From: Oscillospiraceae bacterium
Lineage (GTDB): Bacteria > Bacillota > Clostridia > Oscillospirales > Oscillospiraceae
Assembly (NCBI GenBank): GCA_021442665.1
Contig: JABUSQ010000026.1
Coordinates: 1 to 53,176 of the forward strand
Direction of reading: 5' to 3'
DNA: 53,176 nucleotides
This document shows, one piece after another, positions 41,254 through 53,176 of this stretch (its first letter is position 1; every line of letters begins with the position of its first letter). A program made the translations under genes and the position numbers. The notes beneath the pieces are model-generated. The model saw only the letters and a program-made list of their open reading frames with translations, was not told the DNA's origin and ran no database searches.

Positions 41254-41985
41254 CTAACTGACAACATCGGTCAGCACCGCATATACCGCATAGCGGTAAT
41301 CGGGATTGACCCAGCAGGTGGCAAGGCTAAGAATCCTGTCGTCTGCTGTGACTTGGACATCCCTGTCCTGCACGAGATTACCCGCAGACAGCACGGCATT
41401 AAGATATCGCCGGCAGCTATCGGGGTCTGAATTGTCGCACAGTGAGAGAATGTGCCTGTTGCTGACGATGCGGCTGGCGAATACCTTATAAATTAACTCT
41501 CTGTCGGGGAGGTATATCCTCACTGTCTGATGCCCGAAAAAGAACTCCCCGTCCTCGTACCTGTGAAGGTCTGCGAACATGGTCCCGGCTCTCATGTTAT
41601 GACCGTAGATGACGGTGTTGAAGTCGGAAAAATCGGGGCTGTTGAAGCTCTCGATATAGATGCTGCCCGCCTTATCCTCCCTGCCGCGGAAATCGGTGTT
41701 CAGGTACTTGGAGTTGTCCTCGGGACAGCAGAGGATGGGGTAGTCGATCTCCGTGCCGTCTATGCATATCCAGCCGACGACCTCGGGATTTACAGCCCTG
41801 AGCGCCTCAAAATCAACGGGAGAGACGTAGCCTGCCTCCACGGGCGGAGCCGTGACCTCCGGTGCGGCTTTGAATTCCTCCGCCGACGGAGCCTTACGCA
41901 TATATGACCCTGCAATAAGAATAACGCAGACGGCGAATATCACCGCACAGACGCACAGTACAGCTATTGAGATTCTTTTACGCAT
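41254..41985 (-). CDS. srtB: Class B sortase
   Basis: I placed the start at ATG 41985 (MRKRISIAVLCVCAVIFAVCVILIA, TM anchor), which has a GGGAGG RBS. VVGWICIDGTEIDYPILC, SKYLNTDF, GSIYIE, the His motif VIYGHNMRAGTMFADLHRY, and the catalytic Cys in LSLATCW. Confidence 0.85.
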   Translation of the reverse strand: MRKRISIAVLCVCAVIFAVCVILIAGSYMRKAPSAEEFKAAPEVTAPPVEAGYVSPVDFEALRAVNPEVVGWICIDGTEIDYPILCCPEDNSKYLNTDFRGREDKAGSIYIESFNSPDFSDFNTVIYGHNMRAGTMFADLHRYEDGEFFFGHQTVRIYLPDRELIYKVFASRIVSNRHILSLCDNSDPDSCRRYLNAVLSAGNLVQDRDVQVTADDRILSLATCWVNPDYRYAVYAVLTDVVS

Positions 41986-42032: not shown

Positions 42033-43022
42033 ATGAGAAAAATCAAAAATGCCGTCATTTTAATATTGCTTCCCATGCTTTGCATCCTCGCCTCTCTGAT
42101 GGTGGGCAGGTATTCCATGAGCCTGCGGGAGATATTCGACACTCTGCTGTTGCCAGCGGCAGCGGACATCGAGCACTACCGAGTGGTGTGGTATCTTCGC
42201 CTGCCCCGCTCGGTGGCTGCCGCAATGTGCGGAGCAGCTCTGGCGGTGTCGGGTGCAGCCTTTCAGGGAGTGTTCCGAAACCCTCTTGTGAATTCCGGGC
42301 TGCTGGGTGTTTCCAACGGCGCAGGCTTCGGTGCCTGCGTCGCCATAATATTTCTCGGCGGAGGAACTTTCACCTATATTCTCTCCTTCGCCTTTGCGGT
42401 GCTGGCAGTGGCGATGAGCTGGTTTGCCGGGAGAGTGAGCCGGGTGACTACCTCGGTCACCCTCATTCTGGGCGGTGTCATAGTATCGAGCTTTTTCAGC
42501 GCACTCATATCCGTCATGAAATTCATGGCTGACCCCTACAGTCAGCTTCCGAGTATAACCTTCTGGTTTATGGGAAGCTTTGCCTCCGTAAACTATGTGC
42601 ATTTTTATTCCTTTATCCCCATGACACTTGGGATGCTGCTGATATATCTGTCCCGCTGGCGGATAAACGTGCTGTCCATGGGCGACAGGGAGGCCGCAGC
42701 TCTGGGTGTGGACGTGAAGCGGTATAAATTCCTGATTGTGGGCGGAGCGACGCTGGCTACCGCCTCGGCAGTGTGCATAAGCGGAACTATCGGCTGGGTG
42801 GGCCTTGTGGTACCGCACATCGGCAGGATGATAGTGGGCAACAATAATGTGAAGCTAATTCCCGTAAGCATGTCTCTGGGGGCCTGCTTCCTCACGGTGA
42901 TGGACATACTCTCTCGCAATCTGAGCACCGCGGAGCTGCCCATCGGCATTCTCTGTGCGCTTGTGGGCACGCCCTTCTTCGTGTATCTGCTGAAGAAGAC
43001 GAAGGGAGGCGGCTGGACATGA
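42033..43022 (+). CDS. FecCD/BtuC-family chelate ABC importer permease
   Basis: 329 aa, about 9-10 TM segments. RLPRSVAAAMCGAALAVSGAAFQGVFRNPL and GTIGWVGLVVPHIGR are typical FecCD motifs. Confidence 0.85.
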   Translation: MRKIKNAVILILLPMLCILASLMVGRYSMSLREIFDTLLLPAAADIEHYRVVWYLRLPRSVAAAMCGAALAVSGAAFQGVFRNPLVNSGLLGVSNGAGFGACVAIIFLGGGTFTYILSFAFAVLAVAMSWFAGRVSRVTTSVTLILGGVIVSSFFSALISVMKFMADPYSQLPSITFWFMGSFASVNYVHFYSFIPMTLGMLLIYLSRWRINVLSMGDREAAALGVDVKRYKFLIVGGATLATASAVCISGTIGWVGLVVPHIGRMIVGNNNVKLIPVSMSLGACFLTVMDILSRNLSTAELPIGILCALVGTPFFVYLLKKTKGGGWT

Positions 43023-43807
43023 TACTTGAGGTGAGAGAGCTTAGCTTTTCCTACGGAAAAAGTGAGGCGCTGAAGAATGTGAGCCTCGGTCTCAGCGCCG
43101 GTGAGATACTCTGTGTCATGGGACCCAACGGCAGCGGCAAAAGCACCCTCATAGACAGCATCATGGGCATACATAAGCCCGCCTCGGGCAGCATTCTGCT
43201 CTCCGGCAGAGAGCTGCGCAGCTATTCCCGGCAGGAGCTGGCAAGACAGGCGTCCTATGTTCCCCAGAACCACAGCGTCACCTTCCCCTACACCGTCCGT
43301 GAGGCGGTGATGATGGGACGCACCGCCTACGTCTCCGCCTTCGGTGAGCCTCCCGAATCCGATGGGGTGTTTGCCGAGGACGCCATGAAACGTGTGGGCA
43401 TCTCGGAGCTTGCGGACAAAAGCTACGGGGGAATATCCGGCGGCGAGCTTCGCCTTGTTCTGTTGGCGAGGGCGCTGTGTCAGGGCTCTCCGCTGATGCT
43501 CATGGACGAGCCGACGGCGCATCTTGACTACCGCAATGAGCTAAGATTTCTGGAGACCGTCCGCTCTCTTGCCATTGAGGACGGCAAGGCGGTGCTCATA
43601 TCAACCCACTCACCCGTGCATGCCTTCTATTTTGCTTCCCGGGGAGTACCCACCGGGGCGATATTTCTCAAAAAAGGTGCCGTTGCGGCTCGGGGAGAGC
43701 CCGACGACATAATCACAGCCGAGCTTCTGGAGGAGGTCTACGGAGTCCGTGCCCGTATTCTTGAGAGCGACGGCGAAAAAACCGTACTGCTGCAAAACTC
43801 TCTGTGA
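43019..43807 (+). CDS. Chelate-type ABC importer ATP-binding protein
   Basis: Walker A GPNGSGKST, signature ISGGELRL and Walker B LMLMDEP. ATGA overlap with the permease gene. Confidence 0.9.
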   Translation: MILEVRELSFSYGKSEALKNVSLGLSAGEILCVMGPNGSGKSTLIDSIMGIHKPASGSILLSGRELRSYSRQELARQASYVPQNHSVTFPYTVREAVMMGRTAYVSAFGEPPESDGVFAEDAMKRVGISELADKSYGGISGGELRLVLLARALCQGSPLMLMDEPTAHLDYRNELRFLETVRSLAIEDGKAVLISTHSPVHAFYFASRGVPTGAIFLKKGAVAARGEPDDIITAELLEEVYGVRARILESDGEKTVLLQNSL

Positions 43808-43816
43808 GGTGATATT

Positions 43817-44899
43817 ATGAAAAGAAAACTAACGGCGCTGCTTATCATACTCTGCATGGTGCTGACCCTGCTGTGCGGCTGCGCACCGGAGGCTCCCGAC
43901 GGGAGCGGCGAAACGGTGAGCATAACAGACTGCGCAGGCAGAACGGTGGAGGTGCCGAAGGATCCCCGCTCTATCTGCTGCATATGCCCGTTTTCGGGAG
44001 CTATGATAGTGATGTTCGGCTTCGGAGACCGACTTACGACCTCCTGCAATAACATGGTGCGGAGCAGGCTGCTTACAAATATATGCCCTGCCATTGCCGA
44101 CACCGTGGTGGTGAAAAACAGCGGCAGTGTCAACGCCGAGACGGTGCTGGAGAAGAAAACCGACCTGATCTTCGTCAACGACGGGACCTATGAGACCGAT
44201 GACGAGCGGGCGAAGCTGGACGCACTTGGCATACCCTATGTGGTGGTGGGCTTCACCGACCTTGCAGGTCAGATGGAGGCCATGATGGTCATCGGACGGG
44301 CTCTCGGCGCCGAGGACAAGGCACAGAGCTACGTTGACTGGTGCAGGGGAGTGTATGCCGATGTTCAGGAAAAGCTTGAGGGTGCGGACACTGCATCTGT
44401 GCGGCTGTATCACGCCGTGAACGAGGCAACCCGTACCGATTACAGAGGAAGCATCTGCGCAGAATGGATAGCCATGACCGGGGTCACCAACGTCTCTCTT
44501 GACGGGGAGCTCAGCATGGAGAATGACAAGGCGTATGTGTCTCTGGAGCAGGTGTATTCATGGGCGCCGCAGATGATGATATGCAACGAACCCGGCGTGG
44601 ACGAATATATAATGTCCGACGGCAAATGGGCGGGATTGGAGTGCGTCCTCAGCGGCAGAGTGTATCAGATGCCCGTGGGCATCAGCCGCATGGGGCATCC
44701 AACCAGCACGGAGACGCCGCTTGCCCTGATTTGGCTTGCAAATCTTCTCTGTCCCGAGCTTTATCCCGTGGATTACCCGCAGGTGCTGAAGGATTATTAC
44801 AGGGATTTCTACGGCTATGAGCTTGATGACGAAACTGTGCAGGCGATAATAAGCGCCGAGGATATGCGTGCGGAAAAGACCAATTCGTCCGTGGAGTGA
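43817..44899 (+). CDS. Lipoprotein substrate-binding protein (periplasmic binding protein type 2, chelate class)
   Basis: 360 aa. Signal plus lipobox LTLLCGC. The ITDCAGRTVEVPKDPRSI start is typical of FepB/BtuF-like binding proteins. The protein is unusually Cys-rich. Confidence 0.8.
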   Translation: MKRKLTALLIILCMVLTLLCGCAPEAPDGSGETVSITDCAGRTVEVPKDPRSICCICPFSGAMIVMFGFGDRLTTSCNNMVRSRLLTNICPAIADTVVVKNSGSVNAETVLEKKTDLIFVNDGTYETDDERAKLDALGIPYVVVGFTDLAGQMEAMMVIGRALGAEDKAQSYVDWCRGVYADVQEKLEGADTASVRLYHAVNEATRTDYRGSICAEWIAMTGVTNVSLDGELSMENDKAYVSLEQVYSWAPQMMICNEPGVDEYIMSDGKWAGLECVLSGRVYQMPVGISRMGHPTSTETPLALIWLANLLCPELYPVDYPQVLKDYYRDFYGYELDDETVQAIISAEDMRAEKTNSSVE

Positions 44900-44902
44900 A
44901 AT

Positions 44903-45628
44903 ATGAAAATACTGATTTGCATTGACGATACCGATAATCTTGACAGCATCGGCACGGGTCAGCTTCTGGAGGACCTCTGCGCCGAGCTGGAGAACAGGGG
45001 ACTTGCGAAGGGTGGCTTTGTCACCCGGCATCAGCTCCTGATACATGAGGATATAGAATACACCTCCCACAACAGCTCCATGTGCTGTGAGGCGGAGACG
45101 GAGAGATTTGAGGAAGCCGTGTCCGCCGCCCGGGAGTATCTTGCAAAGCATTCGGCGGAGGGCAGCGACCCGGGTATCTGCGTGCTGAGGCTCGATACCG
45201 CAGCAGACATAGAGAAGCTCCGTGAGTTCGGCCGCAGAGCCCAGACGGAGGTGCTGAAAAAATCCGAGGCATACGAGACAGCGGCACTGTTTCCCGGGAG
45301 CCTCTGTCTGTCCGAGCACGGCGGCACCGGTGACGGTGTTATAGGAGCTCTTGCGGGAGTAGGGCTTCGCCTTACCGGCGAGGACGGCAGAGTCAAGGGA
45401 AAGATTCGCCCGAGGAAAGAGGACGAGGTGCTGACGGCGGCGGATTTCTGCTCTGTCTACAGTGTGGAGCAGATAGTCACCGAGGACGGAGAGCTTCTCA
45501 GCGGGGACGCCGTGCTGCATTTTTCCGAGCCCACCAAGGCGGTGTTCAGAGACAATAAGGTCACGCTGACAGTTCTGCGGGGCGATGGCTTTTGGATACC
45601 CAGACCGCACAGAGGGAATAAAAAATGA
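44903..45628 (+). CDS. Stand-alone protein resembling the N-terminal kinase (TCKD) domain of archaeal TiaS; function unknown
   Basis: 241 aa. MKILICIDDTDNLDSIGTG (IDDTD, Thr at position 18), GFVTRHQLL...IEYTSHNSS, DPGICV and GDGVIGALAGVG parallel the TiaS blocks as I remember them. It starts 4 nt after the binding-protein stop. Confidence 0.45.
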   Translation: MKILICIDDTDNLDSIGTGQLLEDLCAELENRGLAKGGFVTRHQLLIHEDIEYTSHNSSMCCEAETERFEEAVSAAREYLAKHSAEGSDPGICVLRLDTAADIEKLREFGRRAQTEVLKKSEAYETAALFPGSLCLSEHGGTGDGVIGALAGVGLRLTGEDGRVKGKIRPRKEDEVLTAADFCSVYSVEQIVTEDGELLSGDAVLHFSEPTKAVFRDNKVTLTVLRGDGFWIPRPHRGNKK

Positions 45629-45840
45629 GCGTCTGGGAAAAGGGAAAGCGGGGCATGCTCTTCACCAGCGGAAGAGAGGCCACCGGCACTGCTGCGGAGG
45701 AGGCGGAAAAATGCGAAAATTTTTCTCGGGATTATGAAGAGGAATGCTTTGCATTCGAGGATGTAAGCTGTTATAATTGCAGATACAGAAGATGGACCCG
45801 GGACAGCTTCGAGTGTATGAACAGGGAGAAAATGATATGA
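45625..45840 (+). CDS. Cys-rich 71-aa protein of unknown function
   Basis: ATGA overlaps at both ends (45625-45628 and 45837-45840). Five Cys residues, including CYNC, in an acidic/aromatic context. AGAGGGA RBS. Confidence 0.5.
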   Translation: MSVWEKGKRGMLFTSGREATGTAAEEAEKCENFSRDYEEECFAFEDVSCYNCRYRRWTRDSFECMNREKMI

Positions 45841-46526
45841 AAAAGCTTGCGACACTTTCAGCAGTGATTGTTCTGATATTATCCTTGGGCACGGCAGCCC
45901 TTGCCGACGGTGACGGAGACGGCTCCGGAGGCGGAAGCGGAGAGCCCCTTATGCTGGCGGGCAGCTCCGTCGCAGACGGAAGCACAGGTATTTCAACGGA
46001 CGTATATATAACCCTGACCTTCTCCAAAAATGTGGTGAATTTCACCGTAAAGGACAACAATGCGGCATGCATCAGCCTTACGGATTCTGCGGGAGGCACC
46101 GTTCCCGTGAGCGTGGTCATGGGTGACGATCAGGTGGACCCCGGCATCAAGCGTATAATCGGCGTGCAGACAAGCGGACTTAAGGAGGGTGAGACCTACA
46201 CCCTGAACATCAGCGGAGCTCTTACCTCAAAGAGCGGAGTGAGCCTCGGCAGTCCCATAGCCATCAGCTTCACAACCGCAGAGGCCGCCGTCGCCGAGCC
46301 GGACGAACCCGTCAGCAGCGAAGACACTCCCGAGGACGCCGAGGAAATGACGGGGGAAGGAGAAGACATCCTTCTGATTACTAGTGCAGAGGGAGTGGAC
46401 GCAGAGCTTGTTATCGCTCCCGCGCCCGAAGCTCCGGCAGACAACACACTGTGGATAGTCAACGGCGTATGCGCAGCGGTGCTGCTTGCGGCTTATCTCG
46501 CAACAAGAAAAAACATACATAATTAA
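45837..46526 (+). CDS. Secreted Ig-like (Big_5/SbsA-like) domain protein with C-terminal hydrophobic anchor
   Basis: I placed the start at ATG 45837 (MKKLATLSAVIVLILSLGTAALA). DGDGDGSGGGSG tract, one Ig-like module (DVYITLTFSKNVV...ETYTLNISG...ISFTT), an acidic stalk and the tail LWIVNGVCAAVLLAAYLATRKNIHN. Confidence 0.7.
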   Translation: MKKLATLSAVIVLILSLGTAALADGDGDGSGGGSGEPLMLAGSSVADGSTGISTDVYITLTFSKNVVNFTVKDNNAACISLTDSAGGTVPVSVVMGDDQVDPGIKRIIGVQTSGLKEGETYTLNISGALTSKSGVSLGSPIAISFTTAEAAVAEPDEPVSSEDTPEDAEEMTGEGEDILLITSAEGVDAELVIAPAPEAPADNTLWIVNGVCAAVLLAAYLATRKNIHN

Positions 46527-46550: not shown

Positions 46551-47138
46551 ATGAAAAAGACGCTTTCCGCAGTGCTCGCTCTCGTTCTGACAATTGCTTT
46601 GCTGGCGTGCCCCGTTCTGGCGGCAGGCGATGGGTCCGGCGGCGGCTCCGGCGGTGGTACAAAGCAGCTTCAGGTGGTATCCGTAACTCTGGACGGCGCA
46701 GCTCTTGAGGGCGCAGAGGCATCCGCCGACGGTGTTATCACCGTCACCTTCTCCAACGGCATGGCAGACAACAGCGAGGCAACCAAGACGCTCATCGCAG
46801 TAAAGAACGCCGGGGGCGAGGATATGATGGCAGCCGTCAGCTACGACCCCGCAGTGAAGAGCGACTTCGTCGTCAGCTTCAGCGGACTTGAGGCGGGTGC
46901 ATACACTCTGGTCATCGGTGCAGACGCCAAGGCCAACAACGGCACGACGCTGGGCAAGGACTATACCGTAAGCTTCACCGTAGCCGCAGGGGCGGAAGCA
47001 CCGGAGCCCGCTCCCGAGGTAAAGCCCGAGGATGAAGCTCCCGCCACCGGCGAAAGCAAAGCGGTGTTTGCGGTTGCTGCCGTTGCTCTTCTGGGCGTGT
47101 TCGGCGCAGCATGGAGCCTGAAAAAAGCGGAAGACTGA
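46551..47138 (+). CDS. Secreted Ig-like (Big_5/SbsA-like) domain protein with xPxTG-type cell-wall sorting signal
   Basis: 195 aa. Signal peptide with a possible lipobox LLAC, a GDGSGGGSGGG tract and an Ig-like module (VITVTFSNGM...AYTLVIGA...VSFTV). APATG (47037-47051) is followed by a hydrophobic segment and KKAED. Confidence 0.7.
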   Translation: MKKTLSAVLALVLTIALLACPVLAAGDGSGGGSGGGTKQLQVVSVTLDGAALEGAEASADGVITVTFSNGMADNSEATKTLIAVKNAGGEDMMAAVSYDPAVKSDFVVSFSGLEAGAYTLVIGADAKANNGTTLGKDYTVSFTVAAGAEAPEPAPEVKPEDEAPATGESKAVFAVAAVALLGVFGAAWSLKKAED

Positions 47139-47163: not shown

Positions 47164-47199
47164 AAAACGGCAGCACGCATGGCGCGCTGCCGCTTTTTT
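47164..47199 (+). terminator. Intrinsic terminator closing the ABC/surface-protein operon
   Basis: Stem cggcagc / gctgccg with an 11-nt loop, followed by cttttttc. Confidence 0.55.
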
Positions 47200-47317
47200 C
47201 GCCCGCCTGACGACTTAAATCTCAGAATTTATCATATTTGACTGCACCGGAAACGAAAAAACATGAAAAATTTTAAGCTTGCGACTTAAATTCGGCATAA
47301 TTTGGTATACAAGCATC

Positions 47318-47346
47318 TTGAAATGTACATTTTTCTCTGATAGAAT
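47318..47346 (+). promoter_or_regulatory. Candidate sigma-A promoter for galK-galT
   Basis: TTGAAA (47318-47323), a 17-nt spacer, then TAGAAT (47341-47346). It lies 32 nt upstream of the galK ATG. Confidence 0.45.
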
Positions 47347-47377
47347 ACCTTAAACATCAGAATCGGAGGAAGTGTAC

Positions 47378-48655
47378 ATGAAATATACTTTTGCCTCTCG
47401 AATAAAATCAGGGGAGACCGATGCTGCACTCTCTTACCTCTACGGCAAAAGAAATGCGGAAAGAGCCCGTGAAAGGTGCCTTCGCCTTTCAGCGGACTTT
47501 GAAAATATTTTCGGCTGCGAGCCGGAGGCGATATTCAGTGCACCGGGACGCTCGGAGCTGGGCGGAAATCACACCGACCACCAGTGCGGTCATGTGTTGG
47601 CGGCGGCTGTTGATCTTGACATACTTGCGGCGGTGAAGCCCAACGGCAGCGGAGTCATCCGTATGAAGTCCGAGGGCTACCCCATGATAACCGTGGATAC
47701 CGAGAGCCTCACTCCCGTTAAGAGAGAGGAGGCGACCTCCGAGGCACTGGTCAGAGGCGTTGCCTCCGCCTTTGCCGAAAAGGGAGTGGACATGAGCCGC
47801 TCGGGCTTTGACGCCTGCCTTGTGTCCGATGTCCCCGGCGGCAGCGGGCTGAGCTCCTCGGCGGCGTTTGAAATCCTTGTGGGAACCATATTCAACGAGC
47901 TGTATTTCGGCTCGACGGTTTCTCCCGTGGAGCTTGCAAAGATAGGTCAGAGGGCTGAGAATGTGTATTTCGGCAAGCCCTGCGGACTCATGGATCAGAT
48001 AGCCTGCTCCGTGGGAGGAGTTGCCGCGGTTGACCTGAAGGACCCTGCCGTACCGGTGGTGGAGAAGATAGATCTTGAGCTGGATTCTCTGGGCTACGCC
48101 CTGTGCATCATGGACTCCCACGCCAGCCATGCAGACCTCACCGACGAATACGCCGCCATTGCGGGAGAGATGGCTGCCGTGAGCCGCCACTTCGGAAAGC
48201 GCTTTCTGCGGGAGGTGCCCGAGGCGGATTTCCTTGCGGAGCTCAGCTCCGTAAGAGCCGAGACCGGGGACAGAGCCCTGCTCCGTGCGATGCATTTTTA
48301 CTCCGATGACAAGCTTGCGGTTTCAGAGGCGGAGTCTCTAAAAAACGGGGATTTTGACGGATTTCTCCGGCTCGTGAAGGAGTCGGGAAAATCATCTGCC
48401 ATGTACCTGCAGAATGTCGTTCCCACAGGTCACACGGAGGATCAGGCACTGATGCTGACGGTGGCACTGGCTGAGCGACTGCTGCTAGGCAGAGGTGCCG
48501 CCCGGGTACACGGCGGAGGCTTTGGAGGAACGGCACAGGCATATGTGCCGCTGGACATGCTGAATTCCTTCATAGAGGGCATGGAGGCTCTCCTGGGCGA
48601 GGGCAGCGTTCATGCTGTCCGTATCCGTCCCGTCGGAGGATACCGCATTATATAA
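47378..48655 (+). CDS. galK: Galactokinase (GHMP kinase)
   Basis: I placed the start at ATG 47378, with a GGAGG RBS 8 nt upstream. APGRSELGGNHTDHQ and the GHMP motif PGGSGLSSSAA. Confidence 0.9.
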   Translation: MKYTFASRIKSGETDAALSYLYGKRNAERARERCLRLSADFENIFGCEPEAIFSAPGRSELGGNHTDHQCGHVLAAAVDLDILAAVKPNGSGVIRMKSEGYPMITVDTESLTPVKREEATSEALVRGVASAFAEKGVDMSRSGFDACLVSDVPGGSGLSSSAAFEILVGTIFNELYFGSTVSPVELAKIGQRAENVYFGKPCGLMDQIACSVGGVAAVDLKDPAVPVVEKIDLELDSLGYALCIMDSHASHADLTDEYAAIAGEMAAVSRHFGKRFLREVPEADFLAELSSVRAETGDRALLRAMHFYSDDKLAVSEAESLKNGDFDGFLRLVKESGKSSAMYLQNVVPTGHTEDQALMLTVALAERLLLGRGAARVHGGGFGGTAQAYVPLDMLNSFIEGMEALLGEGSVHAVRIRPVGGYRII

Positions 48656-48664
48656 GGAGACGCT

Positions 48665-50158
48665 ATGGACAGAAATACTGCAATTGCACAGCTTACGGAA
48701 TATGCTCTGCGCAGCGGACTCATTGAGCCCTGTGAGAAAACATGGGCGGTGAATACCGTGCTGGACGTACTGAAGCTGGACAGCTTTGAGGAGTGCGGCG
48801 AGCTTCCCGGCGGGGTAGAGCTTGAGGAAGTGCTCGGGACTCTGCTGGACGACGCCGCAGAGCGGGGGATAGTGGAGGACGATATAAGCCACCGTGACCT
48901 GTTTGATACCGAGCTTATGGGCCGCCTTACCCCGAGACCTGCACAGGTCATTGCAAAATTTCGTGAGCTGTATGGGGAAAACCCCGAGAAAGCCACGGAC
49001 TGGTACTATAAATTCAGCATAGCCACGGATTATATACGCTCCTACCGTGTGAAAAAGGACATGAAGTGGACGGCTACCACCGAATACGGCGAGCTGGACA
49101 TCACGGTGAATCTCTCCAAGCCCGAGAAGGATCCCAAGGCCATCGCCGCAGCAAAGAAGGCTCCTCAGGGAGACTATCCTAAGTGTCAGCTCTGCCCCTC
49201 CAACGAGGGCTACGCAGGACGCATAAACCATCCCGCAAGGCAGAATCACCGAATCATCCCCATCACGATAGACGGCAGGGAATGGTTTTTCCAATACAGC
49301 CCCTATGTCTACTATAACGAGCACTGCATAGTCTTTAATAAGCAGCACGTCCCAATGGTCATCGACCGTTCCGCCTTCCGCAAGCTGTTGGATTTTGTCA
49401 GGCAGTTCCCCCATTATTTTGTGGGCTCCAACGCAGACCTGCCCATCGTGGGCGGATCGATTCTCAGCCACGACCATTTCCAGGGCGGACGCTACGATTT
49501 TGCCATGGCTAAGGCTCCCGTGGAGCGGGAGATATCCTTTGCAGGCTTTGAGGATGTATCGGCGGGCATCGTAAAGTGGCCCATGTCGGTCATTCGTCTG
49601 CGCTGCGCCGATTCAGAACGCCTTGCGGAGCTGGCAGATAAGATACTTCTGCGCTGGCGGGGCTACACGGACGAAGCCGCCTTCATCTTTGCGGAGACGG
49701 AGGGTGAGCCTCACAACACCATTACCCCCATCGCAAGACGGCGGGGAGAGGATTACGAGCTGGATCTGGTCCTTCGTAATAATATAACCACCGAGGAGCA
49801 TCCTCTGGGCGTATACCATCCCCATCAGGAGCTGCACCACATAAAGAAGGAGAATATCGGACTTATTGAGGTGATGGGTCTGGCGGTACTGCCCGCAAGA
49901 CTGAAGACCGAGCTATCCGAGCTTGGAGAAGCTCTGGTGGCGGGGAGAGATATCCGCTTCGATGAGACACTCTCAAAGCATGCCGACTGGGCGGAGGCAC
50001 TCAGGGAGAAATACAGCTTCACCGCAGACAATGCGGACGGCATACTGAAGTATGAGGTCGGCAGGGTGTTTGCCGAGGTGCTTGAGCACGCAGGTGTGTT
50101 CAAGCGCACCGTTTCGGGTCAGGAGGCATTTCTGCGCTTTGTCGCAGACTGCCGGTAA
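48665..50158 (+). CDS. galT: Galactose-1-phosphate uridylyltransferase (long, Gram-positive type)
   Basis: 497 aa. SILSHDHFQGGRY (HxHxQ). It lies directly after galK. Confidence 0.9.
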   Translation: MDRNTAIAQLTEYALRSGLIEPCEKTWAVNTVLDVLKLDSFEECGELPGGVELEEVLGTLLDDAAERGIVEDDISHRDLFDTELMGRLTPRPAQVIAKFRELYGENPEKATDWYYKFSIATDYIRSYRVKKDMKWTATTEYGELDITVNLSKPEKDPKAIAAAKKAPQGDYPKCQLCPSNEGYAGRINHPARQNHRIIPITIDGREWFFQYSPYVYYNEHCIVFNKQHVPMVIDRSAFRKLLDFVRQFPHYFVGSNADLPIVGGSILSHDHFQGGRYDFAMAKAPVEREISFAGFEDVSAGIVKWPMSVIRLRCADSERLAELADKILLRWRGYTDEAAFIFAETEGEPHNTITPIARRRGEDYELDLVLRNNITTEEHPLGVYHPHQELHHIKKENIGLIEVMGLAVLPARLKTELSELGEALVAGRDIRFDETLSKHADWAEALREKYSFTADNADGILKYEVGRVFAEVLEHAGVFKRTVSGQEAFLRFVADCR

Positions 50159-50220
50159 TTTCGTACTGAATCCCCGACAGGGGATTACAGATAGCAAAAA
50201 TTCAGAAAAGGAGAATATGT

Positions 50221-51591
50221 ATGGAACAATTGCAGAAATTGTCATGGAAAGCCAAGCTCAGCTTTGGTCTCGGCGCATTCGGTAAGGACGCCGTCTACGC
50301 CATAGTTTCCACCTTCCTGATGTACTACCTCACAGACGTCAGGTTCGTTGCCCCCGCATTCGTAGGTACCCTCTTCCTGGTGGCACGTATATTCGATGCC
50401 ATCAACGACCCCCTCATGGGTGTTATCGTTGACAACACCCGCTCAAAATTCGGACGCTTCCGCCCCTGGATAATGATAGGCACGGTGCTCAACGCCATCG
50501 TTCTTGTGCTTCTGTACTTAAACGTTGATCTGTCCGGCAAGTCCTACGCCATCTACGTTGCCGTGCTCTACATACTCTGGGGCATGACCTACACCATCGA
50601 GGATATCCCCTACTGGTCCATGGTTCCCGCTCTCTCCGAGGACCCTCAGGAGCGTGACCAGATATCCTCCATCCCCCGCTTCTTCGCCTCCTGCGCATGG
50701 CTTATCGTAGGCTCCGCAGGCTTCTCCATCATCGCATTTCTGGGCAAGGGCGACAGTGCAACCGGCTTCTCCCGCTTTGCAATGATAATCGCCGTGCTCT
50801 TCGTGGTGGCCTCCACCATCACCTGCCTAAACTGCAAGGAAGCCCGTGATGTTCCCCCCACCGCAGAGAAGACCACCGTTAAGCGCATGCTGGACATACT
50901 TTTCAAGAACGATCAGGTGCTCGTAATGCTGGGAATCGCCGTGCTCTTCAATCTGGGCTACCAGCTTGAGAACAGCTTCGCCACCTACTACTTCAAGTAC
51001 GTTGCGGGAAGCTGGAACGGCGCACTTTTCTCCGTGTATACCGGTGTGGCGGGCATAGCTCAGATGGCAACGCTGGCTCTGTTCCCAACCATAGCCATGA
51101 AAATCGGCCGTCCCAAGGTGTTCTTTGCCGCCATGGCAGCACAGGTCATCGGCTTCGGACTGCTCTTCGGTCTGGGTTTCGTGGGCGGCGGCTACACTGC
51201 GGTTTCCGTAGGTGTCTGCTCCGCTATCGTAAATATCGGTGTGGGCTTCATGCTGGTTCTCGTCACCGTATCTCTGGCAGATGTTGTCGACTACGGCGAA
51301 TATAAGTTCGGCACCAGAAACGAAGCCATCATCTTCTCCATGCAGACCTTCGTCGTCAAGCTTGCCGGCGCGGTCTCCGGTCTTATCTCCGGTATCGGCC
51401 TGACCCTCATCGGCTACGTTGCAGAGCAGGAGCAGACCGCCGGTGCGATCAACGGCATGCGCATAATCATGCTGGTGGTTCCCGCAGTCCTCGCCGTCAT
51501 CACTTACCTCATCTATGTGAAGGGCTACAAGCTTCGGGGCAGCTTCCTTGACGAGGTCAAGAGCACCATAGCCGCAAAGAACGCACAGTAA
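50221..51591 (+). CDS. Glycoside-pentoside-hexuronide (GPH):cation symporter
   Basis: 456 aa, 12 TM segments. KLSFGLGAFGKD and DNTRSKFGRFRPWIM are GPH/MelB/LacS signatures. Confidence 0.85.
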   Translation: MEQLQKLSWKAKLSFGLGAFGKDAVYAIVSTFLMYYLTDVRFVAPAFVGTLFLVARIFDAINDPLMGVIVDNTRSKFGRFRPWIMIGTVLNAIVLVLLYLNVDLSGKSYAIYVAVLYILWGMTYTIEDIPYWSMVPALSEDPQERDQISSIPRFFASCAWLIVGSAGFSIIAFLGKGDSATGFSRFAMIIAVLFVVASTITCLNCKEARDVPPTAEKTTVKRMLDILFKNDQVLVMLGIAVLFNLGYQLENSFATYYFKYVAGSWNGALFSVYTGVAGIAQMATLALFPTIAMKIGRPKVFFAAMAAQVIGFGLLFGLGFVGGGYTAVSVGVCSAIVNIGVGFMLVLVTVSLADVVDYGEYKFGTRNEAIIFSMQTFVVKLAGAVSGLISGIGLTLIGYVAEQEQTAGAINGMRIIMLVVPAVLAVITYLIYVKGYKLRGSFLDEVKSTIAAKNAQ

Positions 51592-51619
51592 TTAGTAACA
51601 ATGAGAGGAGAGCCTGGTA

Positions 51620-53176
51620 ATGTATTTAGGTGTTGATTACTATCCCGAGCAGTGGGCTCCCGAGCTCATGGAAGCCGACCTTGACAACATCGTCGAAATG
51701 GGCGGAAATGTTATCCGCATCGGCGAATTTTCATGGCATCTCATGGAGAAGACCGAGGGTCAGTACGATTTCTCCTTCTTCGACGGAGTTGTTGCCGCCG
51801 CAAAGAAAAAGGGCATCAAGGTCATAATGGGAACCCCCACCGCCACCATCCCCGCATGGCTGGTGAAAAAGCATCCCACCATATTGTCCGAGTTTGAAAA
51901 CGGTCAAAAGCGTGCCTTCGGCGGCCGGCATGTCTACTGCTTCAACAGCCCGGAGATGTACGGCTATTCCGAGCGCATAATCCGTGCTCTTGTGGGTCAC
52001 TACAAGGACGAGGAGCAGATTGTCGCATGGCAGATTGACAATGAGATAGGCCACGAAGGCAGCGACCTGTGCTGGTGCCCCCGCTGCCACAGAGCCTTTC
52101 AGAGCTTCCTCAGCGACAAGTTTGAGGGTGACATAGATAAGCTCAACGAGGTCTACGGCACAACCTTCTGGTCGCAGGAGTATAACGGTTTTGACGAGAT
52201 ACCTCTGCCCAAGGCAACCATAACCACCCACAATCCCGCCCTGCGTATGGACTGGGAACGGTTCCGCAGTAAGAGCATTGTGGACTTCATCGCATTTCAG
52301 GCGGCACTAATAAGAGAGGTGGCCCCCAATGCGGTAGTCATGCACGATTTCCCCGGCGGCGGACTTGACAAGCATGTGGATTACTCCCTCTGCGCAGCTC
52401 CGCTGGACTTTGCTGCATACAACAACTATCCCGTATGGGGAGGCCAGAAGGTTCCCATAGAGCCTCATGAAATAGCCTTCGGACTGGACTATATCCGTGG
52501 CCTCAGACGGCAGAACTTCATGATAACCGAGGCCATAATGGGCGCACAGGGTCACGACGTCACGGGTTTCCTTCCCCGCCCCAGGCAGGCGCAGATGTGG
52601 TCGTATCAGGGTATGGCTCACGGCTGCGATTCCATGATGTACTTCCGCTACAGAGGCGGTACCAAGGGGGCCGAGCAGTTCTGCTACGGCGTACTGGACG
52701 CCGACAACCGCAAGGGCAGAAAATTCTACGAGGTTCAGGAGTTCTTCAAGACCATCTCCGGGTATTCCGAGGCAATGGAGACTCCCATGAAGGCAGATGT
52801 CGCCATCGTCTACGACTACGACTCTCTGGCTGCCTTCCGCATCCAGCGTCAGAGCATACTGCTGGACTGCCAGAACGAGATGAAGAAGTTGTATAAGCCC
52901 TTCTATGATGTAAACGTACCTGTGGACGTTGTTCCCGCAGACGCCGACCTCAGCGCCTACAAGGTGCTAATCCTGCCTCAGATGATAATCGTGAAGCCGG
53001 AGCTGTATAAGAAGGTCTGCGATTTCGTGGCGAAGGGCGGCACGCTTGTGATGACCTACCGCAGTGCAGTGAAGGATACCGACAACAACCTGCCCTTTGA
53101 GCAGGTGGTTCCCGTGGGCTTTACCGAGCTTGCCGGTGTGGAGGTGGTGGAGACCGAGAGCCTGCAGGCCGGCCAG
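51620..53176 (+). CDS. GH42 beta-galactosidase (3' end truncated by the window edge)
   Basis: I translated it by hand from ATG 51620 (GAGAGGAG RBS). The frame stays open to the window end (519 codons). LGVDYYPEQW, WQIDNE and the Zn-type Cys cluster CWCPRCH are typical of GH42. Confidence 0.9.
   Translation, partial: MYLGVDYYPEQWAPELMEADLDNIVEMGGNVIRIGEFSWHLMEKTEGQYDFSFFDGVVAAAKKKGIKVIMGTPTATIPAWLVKKHPTILSEFENGQKRAFGGRHVYCFNSPEMYGYSERIIRALVGHYKDEEQIVAWQIDNEIGHEGSDLCWCPRCHRAFQSFLSDKFEGDIDKLNEVYGTTFWSQEYNGFDEIPLPKATITTHNPALRMDWERFRSKSIVDFIAFQAALIREVAPNAVVMHDFPGGGLDKHVDYSLCAAPLDFAAYNNYPVWGGQKVPIEPHEIAFGLDYIRGLRRQNFMITEAIMGAQGHDVTGFLPRPRQAQMWSYQGMAHGCDSMMYFRYRGGTKGAEQFCYGVLDADNRKGRKFYEVQEFFKTISGYSEAMETPMKADVAIVYDYDSLAAFRIQRQSILLDCQNEMKKLYKPFYDVNVPVDVVPADADLSAYKVLILPQMIIVKPELYKKVCDFVAKGGTLVMTYRSAVKDTDNNLPFEQVVPVGFTELAGVEVVETESLQAGQ

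Follow-up and report, generated by a model that had tools for sequence, protein, structure and literature searches.

What does a bacterial relative of an archaeal tRNA-modifying kinase domain do in what looks like a metal-uptake operon? The question is raised by a gene at positions 44903-45628 (plus strand) of a 53,176-nucleotide stretch of Oscillospiraceae bacterium DNA (contig JABUSQ010000026.1 of assembly GCA_021442665.1, hereafter the window). Its 241-amino-acid product (P0001) is, on profile and model evidence, a predicted ATP-dependent enzyme resembling the TCKD domain of TiaS, the archaeal tRNA(Ile2) agmatidine synthetase. An earlier note, made from the DNA letters, had described it as a stand-alone homologue of this domain that keeps the catalytic signature and accompanies a metal-chelate importer. 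We find that the enzyme and a four-cysteine mini-protein encoded just downstream form a pair that is a conserved accessory of probable tungsten and molybdenum importers. We propose, with a probability of roughly 60%, that the pair is a two-part ATP-dependent enzyme, the TCKD-like part being the catalytic half, which handles the imported tungsten or molybdenum.

A TCKD enzyme and its four-cysteine partner

The translated open reading frame has the N-terminus MKILICIDDTDNLDSIGTG and a threonine at position 18, and continues with the blocks GFVTRHQLL, IEYTSHNSS, DPGICV and GDGVIGALAGVG; every motif on which the earlier note had relied, Thr18 included, is present in the translation. Searched as a single sequence, the enzyme matched the Pfam family TiaS_TCKD at E 1.2e-4 (22.5 bits, below the cut-off of 27) and the NCBIfam TiaS family (NF040849) at E 4e-6, with residues 1-157 aligned onto TiaS 1-154 and a score of 25.7 bits, where the family cut-off is 600, while phmmer of the single sequence against the PDB gave no match. 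A profile of 22 family sequences matched the TiaS structures 3AU7, 4RVZ and 3AMT over residues 1-157 (E 2.5e-5), and in its alignment with A. fulgidus TiaS, T18 falls on T18 and DDTD on DDTD, in the same columns. The AlphaFold2 model of the enzyme (predicted local distance difference test, pLDDT, 88.9) was related to TiaS by Foldseek with E 7e-10 and a probability of 1.00. VIA-align superposed residues 1-166 of the model onto TiaS 1-161 with Z 19.5, a root-mean-square deviation (rmsd) of 2.2 Å over 149 residues and 26% identity, and the six best rows of its ranking were all TiaS entries. The next fold family, that of 6-hydroxymethyl-7,8-dihydropterin pyrophosphokinase (HPPK), reached Z 7.0-7.5 with an rmsd of 3.5-3.8 Å and 8-10% identity, which is the range of common arrangements. 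The likeness to TiaS detected with the single sequence is real but sub-threshold, and profile and structure confirm the homology. Both comparisons had been proposed in the earlier note, and both came out significant, so that its description of a stand-alone TCKD homologue holds.

Close bacterial relatives of the enzyme number in the thousands, almost all of them named hypothetical. The family comprises more than 4000 proteins at 90% clustering and is found in more than 500 species genomes; the sample used here consisted of 746 matches in 1.8 billion proteins, from which 124 representatives were obtained at 50% clustering. Among these representatives conservation reaches 98-100% at D8, D9, T10 and D11 and 95% at T18, which gives 95-100% for the ATP-binding residues and Thr18, the positions whose conservation the earlier note had thought worth checking. 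Conservation of 91-100% extends over DDTD, T18, G19, R42-H43-Q44, Y53-T54-S55-H56-N57-S58, P90-G91 and the start of the G-x-I-G-A helix. The family-wide invariants of the enzyme are D8, D9, T10, D11, T18, G19, R42, H43 and Q44, followed by Y53, T54, S55, H56, N57, S58, P90 and G91 and, further on, by G145, I147, G148, A149, D161 and G162. Because DDTD and T18 are conserved across the representatives, the family retains the catalytic signature of TiaS. The TCKD-like part spans residues ~1-166 and is followed by a beta-rich C-terminal domain (167-241) that has no assigned relative. Matches to TiaS stop at residues 157-166, and Pfam gave no OB or zinc-ribbon matches. The earlier claim that the tRNA-binding domains of TiaS are absent stands for the ferredoxin-like (FLD), OB and zinc-ribbon domains, but has to be qualified by the Cys-rich module that is encoded just downstream and fused to the enzyme in many lineages.

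This module is the four-cysteine mini-protein (P0271, 71 amino acids; 45625-45840, plus strand), whose gene shows an ATGA overlap on both sides, with the enzyme gene and with the next gene. In alignment, the invariants of its family are C30, D36, E40, C49, C52, R53, R55, W57 and C64. Related loci number at least 515 in species genomes, and the locus counts given here rest on the best 80; in 66 of these 80 the mini-protein gene is found downstream of the enzyme gene. In 30 of ~150 representative clusters, and in locus L065, an in-frame fusion joins the mini-protein to the C-terminal end of the enzyme. Because of these cluster fusions we take it to be an obligate partner which, judging from sequence, behaves as a domain of the enzyme. 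The L065 fusion (L065:6995-7903), from a Eubacterium metagenome-assembled genome, occurs naturally beside a MolB-type importer that lies downstream of the pair and not upstream. Two longer proteins, P0153 (826 amino acids) and P0227 (922 amino acids), combine enzyme and four-Cys module with a GlpA-like FAD oxidoreductase (DAO) that carries a BFD [2Fe-2S] domain; these sequences are a hint that the module may be connected with a redox step. The model of the mini-protein (pLDDT 80.9) and its sequence gave no match in Pfam, among PDB sequences, in Foldseek or in the wide VIA search (best Z 3.1), and an Atlas search returned unnamed clusters only. The label of a TiaS-type zinc ribbon, considered for this protein, is not supportable, as it shows no likeness to any solved chain.

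Such a close pairing could also mean that the enzyme acts on its partner, either as a protein kinase or as a YcaO-like activator of backbone or side chains, and thereby matures a Cys-rich metal-binding peptide. The partner gene is adjacent and translationally coupled, the cysteines lie among invariant acidic and Arg/Trp motifs, and TiaS itself phosphorylates both RNA and protein (PMC11938285). However, C-terminal fusion in 30 representative clusters fits a domain better than a released substrate, the partner lacks a leader/core organisation, and the operon contains neither an exporter nor a protease. We therefore regard maturation of the partner as improbable.

An operon linked to tungsten and molybdenum

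In the window the enzyme gene starts 3 nt past the stop of a binding-protein gene and belongs to an operon that opens with the three parts of an ATP-binding cassette (ABC) importer. These are a MolB-like type II permease of the FecCD family (42033-43022, plus strand; Pfam FecCD E 9e-85), the ABC ATPase (43019-43807, plus strand; Pfam ABC_tran E 1.7e-32) and a substrate-binding protein of the Peripla_BP_2 class (43817-44899, plus strand; Pfam E 5e-14). The best PDB match of the permease was HI1471/MolB (2NQ2_A) with E 1.7e-68 and 234.7 bits, the next being a heme permease with 146.8 bits. HI1470/MolC was among the PDB matches of the ATPase (E 4.6e-31), and the binding protein matched 4OVK, 4HN9 and 4PAG, then MolA 3PSA as its fourth-best hit (E 2e-13). 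MolBC-A is a type II ABC importer of molybdate and tungstate (PMC4031551). The best NCBIfam names for the ABC parts suggested cobalamin or iron-siderophore uptake, which we rejected because the permease is MolB-like and the context is one of molybdenum and tungsten (Mo/W). Of the metal-chelate importer described in the earlier note, the coupling of an importer to the enzyme gene stands; a generic chelate system does not, since the permease is nearest to MolB and the operons of relatives lie under molybdenum/tungsten cofactor (Moco/Tuco) riboswitches among tungsten-cofactor genes.

Related loci were found in Clostridia, Desulfuromonadales/Geobacter, other Desulfobacterota, Kiritimatiellales, Delongbacteria and one Bacillus. 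A binding-protein gene lies directly upstream of the enzyme gene in 53 of 74 testable loci and a MolB-like permease gene upstream in 45 of 64, and Big_5 genes go with the operon in 51 of 80. At 10 loci, mostly from Desulfuromonadales, the ABC pump is replaced by an energy-coupling factor (ECF) transporter with a double ATPase, CbiQ/EcfT and an S-like component; a TonB-dependent receptor is encoded at 11 loci, one of which (L057) also has TonB. In this genome, as in most Bacillota, the pair goes with an ABC pump of the MolBC-A type and its dedicated Big_5 surface proteins, and in Desulfuromonadales it goes with a TonB-dependent receptor and an ECF transporter. Since the same enzyme/mini-protein pair occurs with two unrelated importer classes, it is a cytoplasmic module serving import and not a part of one transporter.

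These neighbourhoods also bear on whether the enzyme might be a bacterial tRNA or RNA modifier of the TiaS type. Its homology to TiaS would fit such a role, as would the UniRef name of one relative, P0117 from Alkalibacter rhizosphaerae, which is called tRNA(Ile2) 2-agmatinylcytidine synthetase. However, its 25.7 bits compare with a TiaS cut-off of 600, the match ends at about residue 160 with no OB or TiaS-type zinc-ribbon domain, and a TilS encoded in the genome (G000:C53) scores 188.8 bits, above the cut-off of 93.6, so that a TiaS is not needed for AUA decoding. In all 80 loci the gene is accompanied by transporters and Mo/W genes and never by translation genes; homologues sited beside tRNA or translation genes were looked for in these loci and none was found. 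The enzyme lacks the tRNA-binding half and is neither a tRNA modifier nor a TiaS orthologue, as the earlier note had already argued when it tied the gene to importers and not to translation, and we give an RNA-modifying role very little credence.

The link to tungsten and molybdenum is most direct in the riboswitches of relatives. Among 30 genomes tested, 10 have a Moco/Tuco riboswitch (RF01055) upstream of the operon on the same strand. Rfam searches of the loci located it at L046, L075 (in tandem), L019, L054 and L057, and whole-genome searches, with contiguity verified, located it just outside the flank, again on the same strand, at L038, L059, L079, L051 and L036. Many of these riboswitch-led genomes contain 1-3 copies of RF01055. 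In the Geobacter locus L057 a stretch of 14.7 kb takes in every one of the three riboswitches of that genome: one precedes the genes for tungsten aldehyde oxidoreductase (AOR) and MoeB, another precedes MoaE and a TupA-like gene, and the third stands immediately 5' of the TiaS-like gene, behind which come the mini-protein, TonB receptor, ECF transporter and TonB genes. Queries for AOR, MoeB and MoaE derived from this locus had matches within 7 kb at 8, 9 and 3 of the 80 loci, respectively, and MoaC is present in 29 of 30 genomes carrying the enzyme gene, where it often adjoins the locus. The P3 stem is missing in three of the four operon-leading aptamers inspected. The P3-less variant of RF01055 has been associated with the tungsten cofactor (Regulski et al. 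2008, PMC2408646), and the same study describes a seven-gene operon of Syntrophomonas wolfei behind three P3-less riboswitches and already mentions genes of unknown function in such a riboswitch operon. Our literature search found the TiaS-like/four-Cys pair nowhere named as a member of the RF01055 regulon, and searching for TiaS or TCKD in bacteria and for TiaS with tungsten returned nothing relevant. Candidate RF01055 elements at L002, L067, L061 and L058, which had coincident coordinates, were not confirmed by Rfam on the loci and were not counted. A cobalamin riboswitch on the contig of the closest relative (L001:12063-12276), ~5 kb downstream of the operon, is unrelated to it.

The genome to which the window belongs (95.9% complete) contains four AOR genes, MoaC and two MoeA genes beside an AOR, together with a TupA-like gene beside another AOR and a ModA/WtpA-like gene. 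Its only Moco-type riboswitch (G000:C91:412-546, L081) is located directly before an AOR gene (C91:763 onward). This riboswitch keeps the P3 hairpin, which is at odds with a simple rule equating P3-less with tungsten. We surveyed 81 genomes of the window's order, each at least 90% complete, and found AOR in two and the TiaS-like gene in one, which is this genome. This co-occurrence is a single coincidence and not a statistic, and it points in the same direction as the Mo/W link.

Downstream of the pair the operon encodes two surface proteins, both on the plus strand. The first (45837-46526) has a signal peptide, a Gly/Ser/Asp tract, a Big_5 Ig-like domain, an acidic linker and a C-terminal hydrophobic anchor, and the second (46551-47138) has a signal peptide, a Big_5 domain and an APATG-type sorting signal. 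A terminator-like hairpin with a T run (47180-47202, plus strand) marks the operon end. On the other side, divergent from the operon, lies a sortase gene (41254-41985, minus strand; Pfam Sortase E 8e-13), which likely starts with the ATG at 41985, behind a GGGAGG ribosome-binding site and 47 nt from the permease start. This divergent sortase gene and the APATG-type signal of the second Big_5 protein suggest that the surface proteins are probably sortase-anchored. The region 3' of the operon (47372-53176) holds a galactose-utilisation cluster with galK, galT, a GPH/MFS sugar transporter and a GH42 beta-galactosidase, apparently a separate transcription unit with a promoter-like site at 47318-47346.

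A proposed role in metal supply

We infer, in agreement with the earlier note, that the enzyme acts on the imported ligand, be it an oxyanion or a larger complex; its substrate and chemistry are accordingly put forward as proposals. By its modelled structure, the TiaS-type TCKD fold would bind Mg-ATP through the conserved DDTD motif, and Thr18 would be the retained counterpart of the autophosphorylated Thr. TiaS acts on a heterocycle carbonyl, the C2 oxygen of cytidine, in a chemistry that reportedly yields AMP and pyrophosphate and is said to go back to Terasaka et al. and Osawa et al. 2011. Most likely the enzyme described here uses ATP to act on the metal species as soon as it has been imported, and one possibility, by analogy with the cytidine oxygen in TiaS, is that an oxygen of tungstate or molybdate is activated by phosphoryl or adenylyl transfer. 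The metal might then move to the putative metal-binding cysteines of the partner, which are flanked by an invariant R-x-R-R-W, and these might pass it on to cofactor assembly (MoeA).

The route of tungsten and molybdenum from the transporter to the pterin cofactor is partly understood, as is the way in which cells discriminate between the two metals. Known ATP-dependent steps are the adenylylation of molybdopterin and, in a few bacteria, storage by MoSto. The rarity of the TiaS kinase fold and its wiring into tungsten-cofactor riboswitch regulons probably indicate a missing enzyme step. In its most specific form, which we offer tentatively and with considerably less confidence than metal handling as such, this would be an ATP-dependent step, so far undescribed, in supplying the tungsten (and molybdenum) cofactor, in which a phospho- or adenylyl-metalate is formed, loaded on cysteine thiolates and delivered to MoeA. 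If so, anaerobes would possess a dedicated metal hand-off between transporter and cofactor synthesis, perhaps one that contributes to metal discrimination.

A plain oxyanion as substrate is favoured by the similarity to MolB and by the fact that carriers make their own pterin and need only the metal (MoaC in 29/30). A competing explanation, the one closest to the earlier note, is that the enzyme phosphorylates or ligates a larger import, such as a tungsten or molybdenum chelate, a pterin or dephospho-cofactor fragment or another vitamin-like ligand, as do the kinases coupled to vitamin importers. This salvage or trapping would suit the loci where a TonB-dependent receptor accompanies an ECF (vitamin-type) transporter, the dedicated surface capture proteins, and the heterocycle carbonyl on which TiaS acts. 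It would also suit the fold ranking, in which the pterin pyrophosphokinase HPPK, which likewise converts ATP to AMP, comes second (Z 7.5), although that value falls within the common-arrangement range. Import of cofactor appears unnecessary, on the other hand, where MoaC and MoeA are present, and MoaC was found in nearly all carriers and, with two MoeA genes, in the window's own genome; moreover, the permease is clearly nearest to MolB, a small-substrate pump. We therefore rank metal handling first, and ligand or cofactor salvage second, as a possible but distinctly less probable explanation.

Several observations nevertheless weigh against this metal-handling reading. Larger or chelated substrates, more than free oxyanions, are what TonB receptors, ECF transporters and surface capture proteins typically serve, and a TCKD enzyme that acts on a metal oxyanion would, as far as we know, have no biochemical precedent. 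The binding protein appears to resemble MolA weakly: in a low-identity pairwise alignment, unreliable in the loops, it has Y, E and H in place of Y114, K221 and Y301 of the MolA pocket and a gap where MolA has R264, so that the oxyanion ligands K221 and R264 are unmatched, a point that would equally favour salvage. The operon riboswitch is absent in 20 of the 30 relatives tested, and 7 of these genomes have none at all. An Rfam scan of the window found no riboswitch at gathering score, and the sortase-permease spacer, being only 47 nt, leaves no room for one at this operon. Finally, the TupA-like and ModA/WtpA-like binding proteins encoded in the genome mean that the importer is not its sole Mo/W route.

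Comparison with known systems

The TCKD fold, known from TiaS only, the MolBC-A importer class and the Moco/Tuco riboswitch regulon have all been described before. The TiaS-like/four-Cys enzyme as a conserved part of tungsten and molybdenum acquisition appears undescribed, and our literature search found no paper on it. The family is widespread, in Bacillota, Desulfuromonadales, other Desulfobacterota, Kiritimatiellales and Delongbacteria, and the tungsten AOR enzymes matter for aldehyde detoxification in gut and rumen and for syntrophic and metal-reducing anaerobes. A correction of annotation also follows: members named tRNA agmatidine synthetase in public databases are almost certainly not such enzymes, and the name of P0117 is probably an annotation error spread by similarity.

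Compared with TiaS, for whose N-terminal TCKD the PDB entries 3AMT, 3AMU, 3AU7, 4RVZ, 5XOB and 3U02 are available, the enzyme aligns in the IDDTD Mg/ATP motif, Thr18, the Y-T-x-x-N loop, the PG turn and the G-x-G-x-IGALA helix. It differs in having no FLD, OB or TiaS zinc-ribbon domain (241 amino acids against about 420 for TiaS), in its different 75-residue C-terminal domain and separate four-Cys partner, and in the invariant RHQ and YTSHNS motifs specific to its family; TiaS is archaeal, whereas the enzyme occurs in bacteria and its gene lies in Mo/W uptake operons. The second-best family match is methanogenesis marker protein 11 (TIGR03280), another stand-alone TCKD relative, whose C-terminal half (134-282) aligns with residues 2-155 of the enzyme at E 7.6e-6. 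Marker 11 is itself archaeal, however, its N-terminal half differs from the enzyme, and the enzyme scores 25.2 bits against the TIGR03280 cut-off of 255.8.

The importer shares with MolBC-A of Haemophilus influenzae (HI1470/HI1471/HI1472; PDB 2NQ2, 3PSA, 3PSH) the gene set of permease, ATPase and binding protein, and its permease is closest to MolB by a wide margin, the BtuC, HmuU and FhuB lineages not being favoured. In contrast to MolBC-A, its binding protein is distant from MolA, and to the importer genes are joined those for Big_5 surface proteins, a sortase and the enzyme/mini-protein pair, additions which to our knowledge are not part of the described MolBC-A system. With the Moco/Tuco regulon (RF01055), finally, the operons of relatives share a riboswitch leader, mostly of the P3-less, tungsten-linked form, whereas the window's own operon has no riboswitch.

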